Source: Candidatus Latescibacterota bacterium (GTDB lineage Bacteria > Latescibacterota > UBA2968 > UBA8231). From it: DNA of 64,000 nt. A program made the translations under genes and the position numbers. This document shows, one piece after another, positions 17,687 to 40,498 of the stretch. The notes beneath the pieces were generated by a model. It saw only the letters and a list, made by a program, of their open reading frames with translations, made no database searches and had not been told where the DNA came from. The number at the start of each line of letters is the position of its first letter. The first letter of the stretch is position 1. The stretch is from NCBI GenBank assembly GCA_965208105.1, contig OZ242318.1:2208001-2272000 (forward strand). Reading direction: 5' to 3'.

Positions 17687-20302
17687 ATGCCCGCTGCCAA
17701 GCTCACTCCCGCGATGGAACAGTACAGGCGCTTCAAGCGCCAGCACGAGGACGCCATACTGTTCTTTCGCATGGGAGATTTCTACGAGATGTTCTACGAC
17801 GACGCCAGGGAGGCCTCCCGTCTGCTCGGCCTCACCCTGACCGCCCGCAACCACGGCAAGAGTGCGGGCGAGGTGCCTCTGGCGGGGGTGCCTTACCACG
17901 CCGTGGAAACCTATCTGGCCAAGCTGATCCAGATGGGCCGCAAGGTGGCCATATGCGAGCAGGTGGAAGATCCGAAGAAGGCCAGGGGCGTGGTCAAGCG
18001 CGACGTGGTCGAGGTGGTCTCACCGGGAACGGCTCTTTCCGACTCCATGCTCGATCGGCAGTGCAACAATTTCCTGGTCGGTCTCTACCCCCATCGGGGT
18101 GAGGTGGGTCTTGCCGTCATCGACCTGTCCACCGGCGACTTCACCCTCAACGAAATCAGCTCCTCCCGGCTGCCGGACGAACTCGAGGCAGTGGCCCCGG
18201 CGGAGCTGCTCATCAGCGACGGCGCCGACGAGCACTGGGTCAAGGAGCTCCGCGGGCTCCTGTCCAAGGTGGCGATCAGCCGCATTGAAGAATGGCAGTT
18301 CGAGTACCACTCTGCCTACGAGACCCTGATCGAGCAGTTCAAGGTGCAGTCGCTCAAAGGTTTCGACTGCGACGACCTGGAGTTGGCCATTCGCGCCGCC
18401 GCCGCCGTGGTGAACTATCTGCGCGAAAACCAGCGCGGCGGCATCGACCACATCAACCGGCTGGTGCGCAAGCGCAGTAACGAGTTCATGATGCTCGACG
18501 CCACCGCCCAGCGCAACCTCGAATTGCTGCACAATCAGCAGGACGGCTCCAGGACAGGTACACTGCTGGAGGTCCTGGACCGCACGCTGACCCCCATGGG
18601 CGCGCGCCTGCTGCGCCGGTGGATCCTCGCTCCCCTCAGGGACCCGGGGGCCGTCGGCCGGCGTCTGGACGCGGTGGCCGCGCTGCGGGGCGCCGGCGCA
18701 GCGCGCGACATCCTCGGCCGGATCGGCGACCTGGAGCGGATCATGGCGCGGGTCTGCTGCCATCGGGCCAATGCCCGCGACCTCGCCGGCCTCGCCCGCT
18801 TCCTCGACACCGCGCCCTCCCTGCGCCGGGAGCTGCAGACTGCGCGCAGCGCCCTGCTCGAGGAGTTGCGCGCCGAAGGGCTGCCCGAAGTCGGCGAGCT
18901 CGTGGAGCTGATCCGCCGGGCCCTGGTCCCCGACCCTCCCGCCACCCTGACCGATGGCGGGCTGATCCAGGACGGATACAACGAGGAGCTGGACGAGTTG
19001 CGCCGCACCAGCAAGGGCGGCAAGGACTGGATCGCCCGGCGCCAGGCCCACGAGCGCAATCGCACCGGCATCGCCTCGCTCAAGATCGGCTACAACCAGG
19101 TCTTCGGCTACTATATCGAGGTCAGCAAGGCGAATCTCGACCGCGTGCCCGACGACTTCATCCGCAAGCAGACTCTGGCCAATGCCGAACGCTACATCAC
19201 CCCGGAGCTGAAGGAATACGAGGCCAGGGTTCTGGGCGCCGAAGAGCGCATCAAGGAGCTCGAGGGCCGGCTCTTTCTCGAACTGCGTTCCCGCACCGCG
19301 GGGTGGACCGCACAGGTGCAGCGGATCGCCCGCACCGTAGCGCAGGTGGACGTTCTGGCGGCCCTGGCCGAGGTGGCGCAGGGCGAGAACTACGTGCGCC
19401 CCGAGGTCGACGACAGCACCGTGGTCGACATCGAGGCCGGTCGCCATCCGGTTGTCGAGCGCATGCTCCAGGAGGGACGCTTCGTACCCAACGATATGCA
19501 CCTGGATTCCGCCGAGGACCAGATCCTCCTGATCACGGGCCCGAATATGGCGGGCAAGAGCACCATCATCCGCCAGGTGGGCCTGATCGTTCTCCTGGCC
19601 CAGATGGGCAGCTTTGTTCCCGCTGGCCGTGCCCGCATAGGCGCCGTGGACCGGATCTTCACCCGCGTGGGCGCTTCCGACGACCTGGCTCGGGGCGAGA
19701 GCACCTTCATGGTGGAGATGAACGAGGCATCCAGCATACTCAACAACGTCACCTCTCGCAGCCTCATCCTCATGGACGAACTGGGGCGCGGTACCAGCAC
19801 TTTCGATGGTCTCAGTATTGCCTGGGCCATCGTCGAATTCCTCCACGAGCGCGACGGCGCCCGGCCGCGCACCCTTTTCGCGACCCACTACCATGAGCTC
19901 ACCGAACTCGAGGGGGTCCTGGCGCGCACGAAGAACTACAACGTGGCGGTGCGCGAAGAGGGCGACCACGTGGTTTTCCTGCATCGCCTGATCCCGGGTC
20001 CCTGCGACCGCAGTTACGGCATCAACGTCGCCCAGATGGCCGGCATGCCCGCAGCGGTCGTGGCGCGCGCGGGCGAGATTCTCCGGCGCCTGGAAGGGGG
20101 ACAAATCGACACCGGGCATCTCCTCGGCTCCGACCGCCAGGTTGAGGTCGAGGAGCAGATGCACCTATTCAGCCCTCCACAAGAACCACCCCGCGCACCT
20201 TTCGAAGAAGAACTGGCCCAGCTCGACCTGAGCCGGACCACGCCCCTGGAGGCGCTGGTCAAGCTGACCGAATGGAAAGACAGACTGGGCGGCGAGCGCT
20301 AG
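17687..20302 (+). CDS. mutS: DNA mismatch repair protein MutS
   Basis: [36 protein letters not shown]. Confidence 0.97.
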
Positions 20303-20466
20303 TGTCCCGCCGCAGAGACAGGTTGACGAAATTGGGCCGCCGAGGCGCCCGGCTCACAAGGCGCCTGAGCGAGTCGTACCAGTGGTGTGCGGCGAGTGAA
20401 GGCAACGCCGTGAGCCGGGATGGATCGGCGGAAAAATGGCGACATATTTCTGCGGCGGGACACTAG
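20299..20466. mobile_element. MITE copy 1 (complete; IS630-like ends)
   Basis: Perfect 18-bp terminal IR CTAGTGTCCCGCCGCAGA / TCTGCGGCGGGACACTAG, internal hairpin, near-identical copies at 25384 and 38280; overlaps the mutS TAG. Confidence 0.88.
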
Positions 20467-25383: not shown

Positions 25384-25520
25384 CTGGTGTCCCGTCGCAG
25401 AGACAGGTTGACGAAATTGGGCCGCCGAGGCGCCCGGCTCACCAGGCGCCTGAGCGGGTCGTACCAGTGGTGTACGGCGAGTGAAGGCAAGGCCGTGAGC
25501 CGGGATGGATCGGCGGAAAA
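25384..25520. mobile_element. MITE copy 2 (right end missing, CTAG mutated to CTGG)
   Basis: Near-identical to 20299-20435. Confidence 0.85.
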
Positions 25521-25574
25521 TCTGTCAGAATTTTCATCCCACCGGATGCCTCGATCCGGTAGTCCTTCCCCTTC

Positions 25575-35701: not shown

Positions 35702-36601
35702 TCAATCCTCGCCAACCTCCTCGTCCGTCTCCTGCCGCGGCCGGGATACCTTCACCACCCAGATGCTGATTTCGTAGAGCAACAGGACGGGGAGCGCCAT
35801 CAGGATCTGGGACAGCGGATCGGGCGGTGTGAAGATGGCTGCCACGACGAAGATTGCGGCGATGGCATAGCGCCGGATCCGGCGCATGTAATCGGGGGTG
35901 AGCAGCCCGAGGCGGGAGAGGAAGAGGGCCACCACCGGCATCTCGAAGACCAGGCCGAATCCCACCAGCAGCCTTAATACAAAGCCGATATAGGTGTCCG
36001 CCGCCCATTGCGAGGTCATGTCCGGCGGTTCCAGGGCAAGGAAGAAGCGCAGCCCCAAGGGCAGCACGATCCAGTAGGCAACCAGGGCGCCGGCGGTGAA
36101 ACACAGGACGCTGAGGCCGATGAGCGGCAGGGCGATGCGCTTCTCGCTGCTCAGCAGGCCGGGTGCGACGAACCGCCAGACCTGGTAGAAGACCACCGGC
36201 AGGGCCAGCACGAGGCCGCCTATGAGGGCGATCTGCAGACTGATGAAAAAGTAGGTCATTGGCTTGAGCGACTGCAGCCGGCGCGAGTCGGGCAGAGCCT
36301 GATCGGGCTCCGAGATCCCTGACTCGGCCCCGGGAGACGGCGAGCCCATCCACTCCTCCAGCAGCTTCCGGACCGCATCCACGGCACCCGGAGGGCGCTC
36401 GCTCTCCAGGCTCCGGACCGCTTCCTCGTAGGGGTAGGTCAAAAGTTTCAGGAGTTGGTCGGAGAAAACGAAGCAGACCACAGCTCCCACGATGACCGCC
36501 GCCAGGGCTTTGAGGATGCACCAGCGCAGCTCCTCGAGGTGGCCCAGGAAGGGCATTTCCTTGCGATCTTTCTGCCTGGACTCGTCCAGAAGGTTCTCCA
36601 A
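35702..36601 (-). CDS. tatC: Twin-arginine translocase subunit TatC
   Basis: MPFLGHLEELR, QVWRFVAPGL, FEMPV, TPPDPLSQ. Confidence 0.96.
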   Translation of the reverse strand: MENLLDESRQKDRKEMPFLGHLEELRWCILKALAAVIVGAVVCFVFSDQLLKLLTYPYEEAVRSLESERPPGAVDAVRKLLEEWMGSPSPGAESGISEPDQALPDSRRLQSLKPMTYFFISLQIALIGGLVLALPVVFYQVWRFVAPGLLSSEKRIALPLIGLSVLCFTAGALVAYWIVLPLGLRFFLALEPPDMTSQWAADTYIGFVLRLLVGFGLVFEMPVVALFLSRLGLLTPDYMRRIRRYAIAAIFVVAAIFTPPDPLSQILMALPVLLLYEISIWVVKVSRPRQETDEEVGED

Positions 36602-36846
36602 TCTCTCGAAATCGATTTCCCCGGCGGCGGCGACTCGGAACCCCGTGCTTGAATCCCTGCCAGCTTCGCCCCGGGCGCATCCTACCCTCCCGCCTCGCGC
36701 ACCCGGGGGGCGCGGAAGGAGCGAGTTCCCTAGACCTTATGTATTGACGGAGATATGAAAGACCTCCTCCGACTCGGTTGTCGGGGGTTATCTTTGGGAA
36801 AACGGAGTTCACCCAAAGACCTATCCCCAGCGAGAAGGAGGAGGCC

Positions 36847-37986
36847 ATGCGTAAATCTACGAAATTCGTCGCCTTGGACATACATAAAGATTCGATCACC
36901 GTCGCCCTGGCCGGTGAAGGCCGAAAAGGGCCAGACCTGTATGGAACGATACCGTCTACGGGCGCCGCGTTGTCCAAGCTGGCGGGCCAACTGGCCCGTG
37001 GTGGGACCTCGTTGCGGTTTTGCTACGAGGCCGGACCCTGCGGCTACGGCGTCTACCGTCAGCTCACAGCCCTGGGGCACGCCTGCACGGTGGTGGCGCC
37101 CTCGCTGATCCCGCGTCGGCCGGGCGACCGCATCAAGACCGACCGCCGCGATGCTGTGTCTCTGGTGCGGCTTTTCCAACACGGCGAGTTGACCCCCGTG
37201 TGGGTGCCCGACGAAGCGCAGGAGGCGATGCGCGATCTGGAGCGCTGCCGGGAAGACTTCAAGCACGCCGAGCGCCGCGTGCGCCAGCGGCTGAACAGCT
37301 TCTTGCAGCGCCACGGCCGGATCTACTCCGGGCGCAGTCGCTGGACCCAAGCCCACTTTCGCTGGCTGGAGACCCAGCGCTTCGATCATCCGGCCCAGCA
37401 GATCGTCTTTCAGGAATACGTGGACGCGGTACAGGAAGCCCAAGGTCGGATCCAGGGGTTGGACCAGGCCCTGCAGCAGGCGCTGGAGGGATGGTCTTTG
37501 GAAGGGGAGACGCGGGCTATGAGGGCGCTGCGCGGGGTAGACACGCTCACCGCGGTTACGACCCTGGCCGAGTTGGGGGACCTCACCCGCTTTGACTCGC
37601 CGCGCCAACTGATGGCCTTCGTCGGTCTGGTCCCCAGCGAGCATTCCAGCGGCTCCCGCCAAAAGCGAGGGGCGATCACCAAGGCGGGCAACGCCCACGT
37701 GCGGCGCGTGCTGGTGGAAGCCGCCTGGTGCTATCGCTTTCCCGCCCGCAAGACGGCCGCCTTGCAACGACGCGCCGAACAGACCGCACCCCCCATACAG
37801 GCCATCGCCTGGAAGGCACAGAAACGCCTGTGTGGGCGCTATCGACGGCTGAGTGGGCGAGGGATGCCGAAAAACAAAGTCTGCACCGCGATCGCGCGGG
37901 AGCTTTTGGGTTTCATCTGGGCCATCGCCTGGGAGCAGAAACGCCCCGGCCGCCTCGTGGCCAGGAGGCCTCGGATCGCCGCCTGA
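36847..37986 (+). CDS. IS110-family transposase/recombinase
   Basis: DEDD RuvC-like residues (ALDIH, CYEAG, KTDRRDA) and Tnp-domain GLVPSEHSSG; AAGGAGGAGG RBS. Confidence 0.95.
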   Translation: MRKSTKFVALDIHKDSITVALAGEGRKGPDLYGTIPSTGAALSKLAGQLARGGTSLRFCYEAGPCGYGVYRQLTALGHACTVVAPSLIPRRPGDRIKTDRRDAVSLVRLFQHGELTPVWVPDEAQEAMRDLERCREDFKHAERRVRQRLNSFLQRHGRIYSGRSRWTQAHFRWLETQRFDHPAQQIVFQEYVDAVQEAQGRIQGLDQALQQALEGWSLEGETRAMRALRGVDTLTAVTTLAELGDLTRFDSPRQLMAFVGLVPSEHSSGSRQKRGAITKAGNAHVRRVLVEAAWCYRFPARKTAALQRRAEQTAPPIQAIAWKAQKRLCGRYRRLSGRGMPKNKVCTAIARELLGFIWAIAWEQKRPGRLVARRPRIAA

Positions 37987-38039
37987 TAAGCTCATCGTCT
38001 CAGAAGCCGGCATAGGACCTTTGCTCATGTAAATCGAAA

Positions 38040-38209
38040 CGGGACAGAAGGGACCGGTCAGGAGAATCCTCGAAGACACTATGAGGCGCCTATCAGGCTG
38101 ACCCTCGACTCTAGATTGAGGCCGCTCCGCGACGCACCCAGGACAGGCGGTAACCAACCCGCGAATATCAGTCGGATCAACCGTCGCTACAGCGTCCCTT
38201 CTGTTCCCG
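38040..38209 (+). ncRNA. Putative bridge/seek RNA of the IS110 element
   Basis: Closing stem 38040-54/38194-209; internal loop with GACACTA (38075-81) and CTAG (38111-14) matching the target; second loop with ATATCAG (38165-71) matching the donor junction. Confidence 0.75.
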
Positions 38210-38279
38210 AACAAACTCATGCAAAGATAACACCCGAAATGACCACCCCGGAGGGGGTTGACAACCGTCAATACATATC

Positions 38280-38445
38280 AGTGTCCCGTCGCAGAGATAG
38301 GTTGACGCAATTGGGCCGCCGAGGCGCCCGGCTCACAAGGCGCCTGAGCGAGTCGTACCAGTGGTGTACGGCGAGTGAAGGCAACGCCGTGAGCCGGGAT
38401 GGATCGGTGGAATAATGGCGACATATCTCTGCGACGGGACACTAG
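38280..38445. mobile_element. MITE copy 3 (left terminus interrupted by the IS110 element)
   Basis: AGTGTCCCGTCGCAGAGATA...TATCTCTGCGACGGGACACTAG; the missing CT lies at 36730-31; overlaps the lnt TAG. Confidence 0.9.
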
Positions 38446-40040
38446 TTGCGCGCGAAAACCCCCTTCACTCTGACGGCAACCAAGCCGGCCAGGCAGACGA
38501 CCGCGCCCAGCAGCATGGCGCGGGCGAAGAGGTCGCCGTGGCGCGTGTAGAAGGTGAGACCGCCCCCGACGTCAACGTCTCCCACCCGCACGGCCGGCTC
38601 GAAAATCCCGGTGGCCTGGTAGGTTCGCCCGAAGGGATCAATGAATAGGGAAATCCCACTGGTGGCGCAACGGGCGATGGAGGTGCGGTTCTCGACGGCG
38701 CGAAGGACGGCCAGTTGCGCGTGCTGGTATGGTCCGGCGGTGCGCCCGAACCAGGAGTCGTTGGTGATGTTGATCAACAGCTGCGCCCCCGCCTGCACGC
38801 GCTGCCGCGCCAGATCGGGAAAGACGGATTCGAAACATATGAGCACGGCGAAGGTCGCTTCGGAATGGCTGAACAAGGTGTGTTCCCTGCCCCTGGCGAA
38901 CTCGGCCGGACCGAGATCGCCGGTGAGGGCGGTCCAGTCGATCCCGCGCAGCAGGGGGATGCTGTCCCGGAAGGGGGTGCGTTCGCCAAAGGGGACCAGG
39001 TGCATTTTGGCATAGACCTGCAGATCGGGGTGCCCGGGACTGGCGAAAAAGGCTGAATTATAGGGCTCGCCGCCCGATGGACCATAGTCCGAGGCCCCGG
39101 TGAGCAGGGGTATCCGCAGGTCCTTCACCAGTCGCTCCACCCTGCCCCTGCAACCGGGGCGCCAGCGCAGGTAACAGGGCAGGGCGGTCTCGGGCCAGAC
39201 GAGAAGGGCGGGATTCCGGGCAGCCGCCTGTCGCGACAAGCTCTCGAGGGTGGCAAAGCTGCGGCCGAGGCCGCCGGGCCCCCATTTCTCCTCGCGGGAC
39301 AGGTTGGGCTGGACCAGGGCGACCCGCATTTTCGGGCCCGGCAGGGACGAGGGCGGTATCGAAGCGCGGCCGTGGACCCAGGGTCCCGCTATCCACAGAA
39401 CCAGACCACCCAGCAGCGCCGTCCGCCGCCGGATCCCCATGGGAGCGGCGAGAATGAGAAATACCAGCACATTGACCAGGGCGAGCCAGAAGGAGACCCC
39501 GTAGACCCCGGTAATCGAGGCGTACTGGATCAGGGCGGGAAAGACCGCCTGGGTGTTGCCCAGAAGCAGCCAGGGGAATCCCAGCTCGCCCAGCGAGAGC
39601 AGGTACTCCTGGGCCGACCACAGGACGGGAGCCAGGAGCAGGGCGCGCCGGCCCCAGCGCTGCATCGAGCCGCCCAGCAATCCGGCGAATACGGCGATGA
39701 ACAGGCCCAGGTAGGCGGCCATGAGCACGGTGCCGCCTACTACGGCCGGTCCTCCTCCCTGGGTGTGGGCGACCCAGTAGAGACTGCACAGATTGAAGGT
39801 GAAGCCGGTAACCCATCCCCGCCGAAACCCCTCTTTGAAACCACAGCCCTGCAGGGCCGCGAACAGGGGGATCAGCGCAGTCCAGGCCCAGCCGCCGTGA
39901 TAGAGAATGGCCAGAGGATTTTCGGGATGGCAGGGAAAGGACAGGGCAAGCAGCATCCCCGACAGTATGGGGAGTATGCATCCGCGGAAATGCCGGTTGG
40001 AGCCGGTGAGGGCCAGGCTGGCTGCGGAGATCTGGAGCAT
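38442..40040 (-). CDS. lnt: Apolipoprotein N-acyltransferase
   Basis: GFPW, VWPETA, KMHLVPFGE, ICFE, NITNDSW, RAVEN. Confidence 0.95.
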   Translation of the reverse strand: MLQISAASLALTGSNRHFRGCILPILSGMLLALSFPCHPENPLAILYHGGWAWTALIPLFAALQGCGFKEGFRRGWVTGFTFNLCSLYWVAHTQGGGPAVVGGTVLMAAYLGLFIAVFAGLLGGSMQRWGRRALLLAPVLWSAQEYLLSLGELGFPWLLLGNTQAVFPALIQYASITGVYGVSFWLALVNVLVFLILAAPMGIRRRTALLGGLVLWIAGPWVHGRASIPPSSLPGPKMRVALVQPNLSREEKWGPGGLGRSFATLESLSRQAAARNPALLVWPETALPCYLRWRPGCRGRVERLVKDLRIPLLTGASDYGPSGGEPYNSAFFASPGHPDLQVYAKMHLVPFGERTPFRDSIPLLRGIDWTALTGDLGPAEFARGREHTLFSHSEATFAVLICFESVFPDLARQRVQAGAQLLINITNDSWFGRTAGPYQHAQLAVLRAVENRTSIARCATSGISLFIDPFGRTYQATGIFEPAVRVGDVDVGGGLTFYTRHGDLFARAMLLGAVVCLAGLVAVRVKGVFARN

Positions 40041-40498
40041 CGGCTGCCGGGGTGGTGAGTTATGAGGCCGTGGAGAAGTGCGGAGACGGGCGCGGGCAGG
40101 GATGGAGCATGGCCGGCAAATATAGACCGGTGCGCGGCGGCGGGCAAGGAAGGTGGCACGAATTCTGCTTCGACGGAGGTTGCCCGGTCCGTCCCGGATT
40201 TGGTGAAGGACCCGATTGCAATGGTAGCTGCAGGGCAGTGAGCGGGCTGTCCCCTTGAACCCCTTCCGCTGCCCCGGTCTTCCCCCGGGCCGGCGCAAAT
40301 GGAGGAAGGAAAATTCGCCCGGAAATTTCCTCATGGTTTCTTCCGGGTGCTATGTTGGCAGGAGAGGAGAACAGGAATGGTTCGTTTCTTACACGCATCG
40401 GCCGGAGAGGCAGGAGAATCATGCACTCGGAAGTAAGCTGGGAAGAAAAAAATTTGAACAACGGGGTCGGATGCCTGCCGCCAAGGAAAGGTTCCCCC

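Follow-up and report, generated by a model that had tools for sequence, protein, structure and literature searches.

IS4321/IS5075, elements of the IS1111 family reportedly described by Partridge and Hall in 2003, are said to insert into the terminal inverted repeats of the Tn21 family. For IS1111 elements, the excerpted text of Siddiquee et al. (2024; PMC11187229) gives sub-terminal inverted repeats of 11–13 bp, terminal extensions of 7 (or 6) bp at the left end and 3 bp at the right end, and transposases of 330–350 amino acids (aa) with the C-terminal motif GL-P----S(t)G; in the seekRNAs described there, the complement of the target top strand lies 5' of the complement of the bottom strand, and the two overlap in the target. 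Bridge RNAs were predicted in 93% of IS1111 elements, as stated in the excerpted text of Durrant et al. (2024; PMC11208160). An insertion sequence (IS) of this type is described here from a 64,000-nucleotide stretch of the genome of Candidatus Latescibacterota bacterium (GenBank assembly GCA_965208105.1, contig OZ242318.1, positions 2,208,001 to 2,272,000). The whole stretch is referred to as the window, and coordinates without another label are window positions. At a probability of about 0.88, the IS is an active IS1111-type element with a DEDD recombinase and a two-arm guide RNA targeting the junctions at the ends of miniature inverted-repeat transposable elements (MITEs).

The left junction of the element reads ..TTCC-CTAG|ACCTTATG and the right junction ..CATATC-AG|TGTCCCGTCGCAGAG. 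The core dinucleotide AG was counted with the left end by convention, and the lengths of the 7-nt and 3-nt terminal extensions depend on that choice. The encoded transposase contains the domains PF01548 (E 5.7e-13, N-terminal) and PF02371 (E 1.8e-22, C-terminal), and the IS1111 C-terminal motif is present as GLVPSEHSSG. Compared with solved structures, the protein aligns with the ISCro4 transposase at the D, E, D, D and SGS positions; the matches are weak (ISCro4, E 1.4e-8; IS621, E 2e-5), and their significant stretch falls within the C-terminal domain. Non-coding DNA is longer downstream of the gene (293 nt, 37987-38279) than upstream (115 nt, 36732-36846). The hallmarks of IS1111, namely the domains, sub-terminal repeats, extensions, downstream region and motif, were found, and by its DEDD domains, end structure, downstream non-coding region and motif the element is classed as IS1111-type. 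Among the named relatives found, the ISEc45 family came closest, its protein being 48.5% identical over 94% of the query; other IS110-family entries are 27–30% identical, and a place of the transposase within the IS1111 clade is tentative.

Positions 38036 to 38212 of the downstream region form a closed fold with two arms (-65.1 kcal/mol, z = -3.0), and 1 of 200 shuffled sequences folds as well; the whole downstream non-coding region (about 295 nt), folded alone, is unremarkable (z = -1.3). Arm 1 is formed by an 8x8 internal loop between the stems CCUCGA/UUGAGG and UGAGG/CCUCG. The 5' strand of this loop carries GACACUA (38075-38081), the 3' strand CUAG (38111-38114). Both the closed fold of about 170 nt and the two strings facing each other in the first loop were already present in the initial annotation, and they were recovered here at these positions. 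The homologous RNA region was found in 77 of 80 loci. RNAalifold, run on an alignment of 58 distinct sequences, returned 41 pairs; compensatory changes are seen in 26. The paired cells amount to 93.0%, versus 37–45% when partners are slid by 1–3 columns (one spurious pair was replaced by hand), and the observed covariation was reached in 0 of 500 shuffles.

For the comparison of guides with targets, the ends of homologues were located by conserved end sequences, and loops were compared with flanks in a fixed register. No other columns of the alignment vary as much as the two strands of the arm-1 loop, which lie between invariant stems. In the 5' strand, 206 of 288 variable positions (six bases in 48 elements with distinct guide pairs) are Watson–Crick complementary to the right flank; permuted pairings gave 89.2 +/- 7.9 with a maximum of 120, and 0 of 10,000 reached the observed value. 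In the 3' strand, 77 of 156 positions (four variable bases, 39 elements) are equal to the left flank, while permuted pairings gave 40.9 +/- 4.9 with a maximum of 61, again with 0 of 10,000 reaching the observed value. More than 20 different target sequences, counted by eye, are involved, and several low scorers (e.g., L071 and L086) match perfectly once the register is shifted by one base. The order of the guide matches, with the top-strand complement first, the bottom-strand complement second and an overlap at the core, agrees with that of IS1111 seekRNAs. Invariance of GACACUA and CUAG among homologues, raised in the initial annotation as a case against guide function, is contradicted by these columns, which are hypervariable and change together with the flanks, and the guide–target covariation proposed there as a test is present on both strands. 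Taken together, these data argue strongly for target guidance by the arm-1 loop. All the computational tests that the initial annotation proposed turned out in its favour.

Recognition of CTAG/TGT by the recombinase protein alone, with the RNA structure serving as a stability or regulatory element of the 3' untranslated region and with coincidental matches to the target, is improbable. The T-AG of the target and the CUA/UAGA of the loops are nearly invariant across the clade, so that a share of the protein in core recognition is possible, but beyond the core it is the most variable positions of the RNA that track the flanks, a result reached by none of the permutations. The stems around the loops are maintained by compensatory changes, and experiments on other IS1111 members demonstrated RNA guidance, according to the excerpted text of PMC11187229.

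The copy search covered the genome, a single 4.85-Mb contig, which contains 11 full-length copies and one internally deleted copy of the IS, 95.6–100% identical and alike in their ends. CTAG borders every one of the 12 on the left side and AG-TG on the right; 11 of the 12 sites read CTAGTGT and 10 of the 12 read CTAGTGTC. The ends of one 162-bp MITE family accommodate ten copies, three at one end type and seven at the other, so that the proposed tabulation of flanks revealed a uniform site and both MITE orientations. Free CTAGTGTC sites number 87, and 75 of them run on as the MITE end CTAGTGTCCC. Use of any CTAG, with MITE ends dominating as holders of many of the scarce CTAG sites, would fit the approximately 10-fold depletion of this tetranucleotide (1649 observed versus ~16,956 expected from base composition) and its presence at 112 MITE ends. 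This explanation is highly improbable, since TG follows CTAG in every insertion and TGT in all but one, while CTAGTG is found just 345 times and CTAGTGT 119 times among the 1649 CTAG sites, which as palindromes can be used in either orientation; moreover, all of the approximately 18 ends of the IS630-like IS, which read CTAGTGCT, are free of the IS1111-type element. A sizeable share of the remaining CTAG sites consists of MITE or IS630 junctions.

IS630 prefers CTAG and duplicates TA. The MITE ends read C-TA-GTGTCCC: the element starts with G, is preceded by the TA duplication and was inserted into CTAG. The family has 198 recognizable ends in the genome, 112 of which are preceded by CTA. The insertion site of the IS takes in one base of the former flank, the TA duplication and bases one to five of the MITE repeat, so it exists only after a MITE has landed. 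Accordingly composed is the CT at the left junction in the window, where C derives from the original CTAG site of the MITE and T from its TA duplication. The TA duplications of the host MITE are located at 36731-36732, displaced by the IS, and at 38443-38444. Removal of the IS together with one AG yields CTAGTGTCCCGTCGCAGAG, which is the reverse complement of the other end of the MITE (38426-38445) and is also found at 20299 as the left end of another MITE copy, whose positions 20302-20463 are 95% identical over 162 nt. The intact left end that the initial annotation had reconstructed in this way is confirmed, as are its free perfect sites at 20299, 20459 and 38438.

The outer flanks of the ten MITE-borne copies differ and the MITE copies vary by point changes; these differences and the use of both MITE ends indicate that the insertions were independent and that no single composite was copied. 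Hitch-hiking, in which the IS was caught once in a MITE and a composite of CTAG, IS and MITE was spread by an IS630-type transposase, would account for the similarity of the MITE sequence over ~160 nt on the right side of ten copies, but has next to no probability, because one composite cannot give three copies at one MITE end type and seven at the opposite one, the MITE copies carry point changes, two copies lie outside the family, the single MITE-repeat base left of the IS provides no second MITE end for mobilization, and homologues in other phyla show loop–flank matching at unrelated sites.

One copy is inserted in a second MITE family at CTAG|TGTTGT, which needs a G-T wobble at guide position 7. 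At position -5, a pyrimidine is present in 11 of the 12 occupied sites versus 49% of the 87 free CTAGTGTC sites (binomial p 0.003), which suggests that the U before CUAG in the 3' guide is read with wobble, pairing with A or G. The earlier proposal that the guide reads only the invariant repeat and not the variable flank therefore seems to need correction at position -5. Likewise, specialization on IS630-type MITE and IS ends is borne out by the ten copies in one MITE family, but has to be narrowed in view of the copy in the second family, a copy with hybrid flanks and the unused CTAGTGCT ends; the latter indicate that specificity comes from 9–10 nt of guide rather than from IS630-type ends as a class. 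Seven IS copies are at least 99.4% identical and copies 1–10 have open frames, which points to a probably active insertion sequence. One common 5' guide is found in all 12 copies, and variant 3' guides are found in three.

Several observations weigh against the RNA-guided targeting of MITE ends by an IS1111-type element. The right flank of copy 9 (AG|TGGTCG) fits the guide poorly, and the flanks of this copy (locus L009, genome contig 3964970-3966516) come from two loci. The left one is provided by the stop codon (TAG) of a frame resembling carbon-nitrogen hydrolases; the right one lies inside an IS630-like transposase gene that reads CC-AG-TGG, not CTAG, in nine intact copies. These hybrid flanks are best read as a later rearrangement, apparently a deletion or an inversion that was mediated by copies of the IS or by a pseudo-site. 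The candidate left-donor guide matches only 4 of 5 bases, and the core is unmatched in that register. The transposase, at 379 aa from the ATG at 36847, exceeds the range of IS1111 transposases, homologues being similar in length, and is ~26% identical to that of IS4321/IS5075 over 61% of its length. The elements in the permutation test are related, and the significance is overstated to that extent. A scan of 36000-39000 against Rfam 15 (E up to 10) gave chance-level matches and no bridge RNA or seekRNA family. Eight RNA-library runs contain 6–27% of the sampled words of the element, and contigs from four RNA-library runs (at least 90% likeness) cover the gene and RNA region of relatives; these contigs carry no strand or end information, may stem from DNA carry-over and show nothing on transcription or habitat.

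The mechanism is most likely the RNA-guided recombination established for IS1111/IS110. The element would encode the recombinase, followed downstream by a guide RNA with two arms (~170 nt), corresponding to a bridge RNA or a long seekRNA. The 5' strand of arm 1, GACACUA, would pair with the top strand 5'-TAGTGTC-3', and the 3' strand, (U)CUAG, with the bottom strand of YCTAG; both matches overlap at the T-AG core, where the strands would be exchanged. A site of 9–10 nt is predicted in this way, and it is found almost only where a GTGTC-ended IS630-type MITE entered CTAG with TA duplication (C-TA-GTGTC). Since the site is nearly confined to MITE junctions, the element would accumulate at either MITE end, always in one orientation. 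Arm 2 would hold donor guides for the joined ends of the element, AUAUCAG for the right end plus core and the imperfect AGGAC for the left end, and recombination would join the abutted ends of the excised circle to a target read on both strands around the dinucleotide core. The production of the RNA, its binding by the recombinase, the circular intermediate and the chemistry at the core are inferred from the family.

Both donor strings of the second loop were located as proposed in the initial annotation: ATATCAG, equal to the right end plus core, at 38165-38171, and AGGAC, a partial match with AGGTC, at 38140-38144. AUAUCAG matches the right end and core at 7 of 7 positions in 31 of 34 distinct combinations. 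In locus L048 the guide and the right end have changed together (AUACCAG with ..ATACC), and L042 and L094 show the same strings. The candidate left-donor guide matches at 4 of 5 positions in 29 of the 34 combinations, at 5 of 5 in two and at 3 of 5 in three; in this sub-lineage, a change in one base of the guide accompanies a change in the left end. Its assignment is weak, and the assignment of the donor loop to the right and left ends together may be regarded as half-supported. The coordinates of the features are collected in Table 1.

Table 1. Features of the IS1111-type element, its predicted guide RNA and the MITE copies in the window
Feature	Position	Strand	Remarks
Left half of target (CT of CTAG)	36730..36731	+	CTAG precedes all 12 copies
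IS1111-type insertion sequence	36732..38279	+	1548 bp, counting one AG core copy with the left end
Left terminal extension, 7 nt, AGACCTT	36732..36738	+	AG core included
Left sub-terminal inverted repeat ATGTATTGACGG	36739..36750	+	Perfect 12-bp match with 38265-38276; kept in homologues
DEDD transposase/recombinase gene, 379 aa	36847..37986	+	Sole gene of the element; Pfam domains, motifs
Bridge/seekRNA gene, ~170 nt (predicted)	38041..38208	+	Closing stem 38041-38054 with 38194-38208, two arms
Target-binding loop, 5' strand AAGACACUA (putative)	38073..38081	+	GACACUA complements target top strand 5'-TAGTGTC-3'
Target-binding loop, 3' strand ACUCUAGA (putative)	38108..38115	+	(U)CUAG complements bottom strand, left flank and core
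Left-donor guide AGGAC (putative)	38140..38144	+	4/5 versus AGGTC, complement of left-end bases 2-6
Right-donor guide AUAUCAG, arm 2 (putative)	38165..38171	+	Equals right end ATATC plus AG core
Right sub-terminal inverted repeat CCGTCAATACAT	38265..38276	+	
Right terminal extension, 3 nt, ATC	38277..38279	+	
AG core, right junction	38280..38281	+	G doubles as first base of the MITE inverted repeat
Host MITE copy, 162 bp, IS630-type, GTGTCCCGTCGCAGAG...CTCTGCGACGGGACAC	38281..38442	+	92 genomic copies of at least 140 nt
Free perfect target site, other end of host MITE, GACACTAG	38438..38445	-	
MITE copy	20302-20463		Same family; both ends are free target sites
Partial MITE copy	25387-25521		Same family; 136 of 162 nt

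Homologous loci elsewhere were analyzed with 4-kb flanks. The start of the right flank has an inverted partner (no more than 2 mismatches in 14 nt) in 14 of 66 homologous loci, versus 1 of 66 for a decoy 14-mer. TAG or TTAG is the terminal sequence of 12 of the 14 partners, and the elements bounded in this way measure 128–163, 444, 1178 and 1564 bp, that of 1178 bp with a gene for an IS630-like protein. In total, 12 of the 66 loci, which come from other phyla, are located at the ends of TA-flanked elements with terminal inverted repeats (TIRs). They represent approximately eight guide types and belong to Gammaproteobacteria, Desulfobulbaceae, Bryobacterales and an unclassified bacterium. A tblastn search of the downstream flanks of homologues with the resident IS630-like protein recovered L019 alone (E 6e-15) and is too insensitive for counting IS630-like hosts. 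Targeting of TIR-element ends is recurrent in the clade, and 12 of 66 loci do not establish it as a general rule. Four homologue copies in a Longimicrobiales metagenome-assembled genome (L150, L151, L153 and L154) share at least 14 nt of the left flank and 20 nt of the right flank and have no detectable inverted partner; the predicted target of this guide type is some other repeated sequence.

Three-level nesting was observed outside the window, at genome contig 3999566-4001432 (L002, L015 and L017). There, the minus strand bears an old and diverged IS remnant with a MITE placed precisely at the TTAG of its 3' guide loop; IS copy 2 later entered the end of that MITE. The remnant has the 5' guide ACUGCACUA, for which TAGTGCAGT would be the pairing partner; TAGTGC in the latter recurs at the ends of the resident full-length IS630-like element. 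The relation between IS and MITE may be reciprocal, the TAG core in guide-encoding DNA being itself an insertion site of MITEs, an arrangement seen once. It is possible, although doubtful, that a widespread IS1111-like clade in several phyla, pre-adapted by the fixed T-AG core of its guides to the C-TA-G junctions of IS630/Tc1-mariner-type elements, lives as their hyperparasite. If true, a hyperparasite of IS630/Tc1-mariner-type elements and their MITEs would retune just 4–7 variable guide bases for each host repeat.

Other resident elements are represented by an IS630-like IS of 1163 bp in approximately 9–10 copies (e.g., genome contig 756788-757950), the transposase of which is read in two frames. 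The arrangement C-TA-[element]-TA-G was found in all five copies inspected, with the ends C-TA-GTGCTCTGTTAAGG...CTTTAACAGCGCAC-TA-G. Its repeat is unlike those of both MITE families, and it is not obviously their autonomous partner. The second MITE family, of ~117 bp, has the CTAG-flanked ends GTGTTGTGTCCTG...CAGGACGCAACAC and carries one IS copy (genome contig 2089784-2091330). In the window, the MITE and the IS occupy the intergenic space between two genes on the minus strand, 35702-36601 and 38442-40334, which, judging by eye from their translations, resemble tatC and the apolipoprotein N-acyltransferase gene lnt, respectively.

RNA-guided recombinases of the IS110/IS1111 type are under development as programmable genome-editing tools, and the rules of IS1111-type guides are less worked out than those of IS621. 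The clade described here offers a well-alignable RNA and at least 48 natural guide sets with cognate sites, from which guide length, register shifts, wobble tolerance and the fixed T-AG core can be read. It would also be a case in which the insertion scars left by one mobile element provide another with a landing pad that is abundant, harmless and self-renewing. A search of the open-access literature for IS1111 together with MITE and IS630 returned nothing on this topic, judging by titles; the supplementary target tables of PMC11187229 and PMC11208160 may list relatives of this element.

Compared with known systems, the element shares a DEDD transposase, sub-terminal repeats, extensions, a long downstream non-coding region, the order of strand complements and orientation-specific insertion with the seekRNA elements ISEc11, ISKpn4, ISPst6 and ISPa11, as these are described in the excerpted text of Siddiquee et al. 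(2024; PMC11187229). It differs from them in the length of the transposase (379 aa), the MITE-end junction as target, the short guide matches (7 and 4–5 nt) and in that its RNA is predicted. In the ISEc45 family, a similar CCUCG...GAGG layout is visible by eye downstream of the gene, while a search of the ISEc45 locus with the RNA profile gave no match. As in the bridge RNA of IS621 (Durrant et al. 2024; PMC11208160, excerpted text; structures 8wt6-8wt9), target- and donor-binding loops would read both strands, and a dinucleotide core is used, AG here being CT on the other strand. Unlike in IS621, the RNA is located at the right end instead of the left, the order of strand matches is reversed and the sub-terminal repeats are long; likeness of the proteins is detectable in the C-terminal domain alone (E 2e-5).

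A parallel in lifestyle is that of IS4321/IS5075, in which one transposable element likewise specializes on the ends of another. The proteins share ~26% identity, and the hosts are IS630-type MITEs here and Tn3-family transposons there; moreover, the site used here spans the flank, the duplication and the first repeat bases and exists only after insertion of the host element. The principle is already published, both for RNA guidance of IS1111/IS110 and for an IS1111 member on the repeats of another element, whereas the flank–duplication–repeat junction of IS630-type MITEs as a target, its recurrence across phyla and the natural series of reprogrammed guides are new. Targeting of MITE ends parallels the targeting of repetitive extragenic palindromes (REP), attC sites and Tn21 ends, with a new host element.

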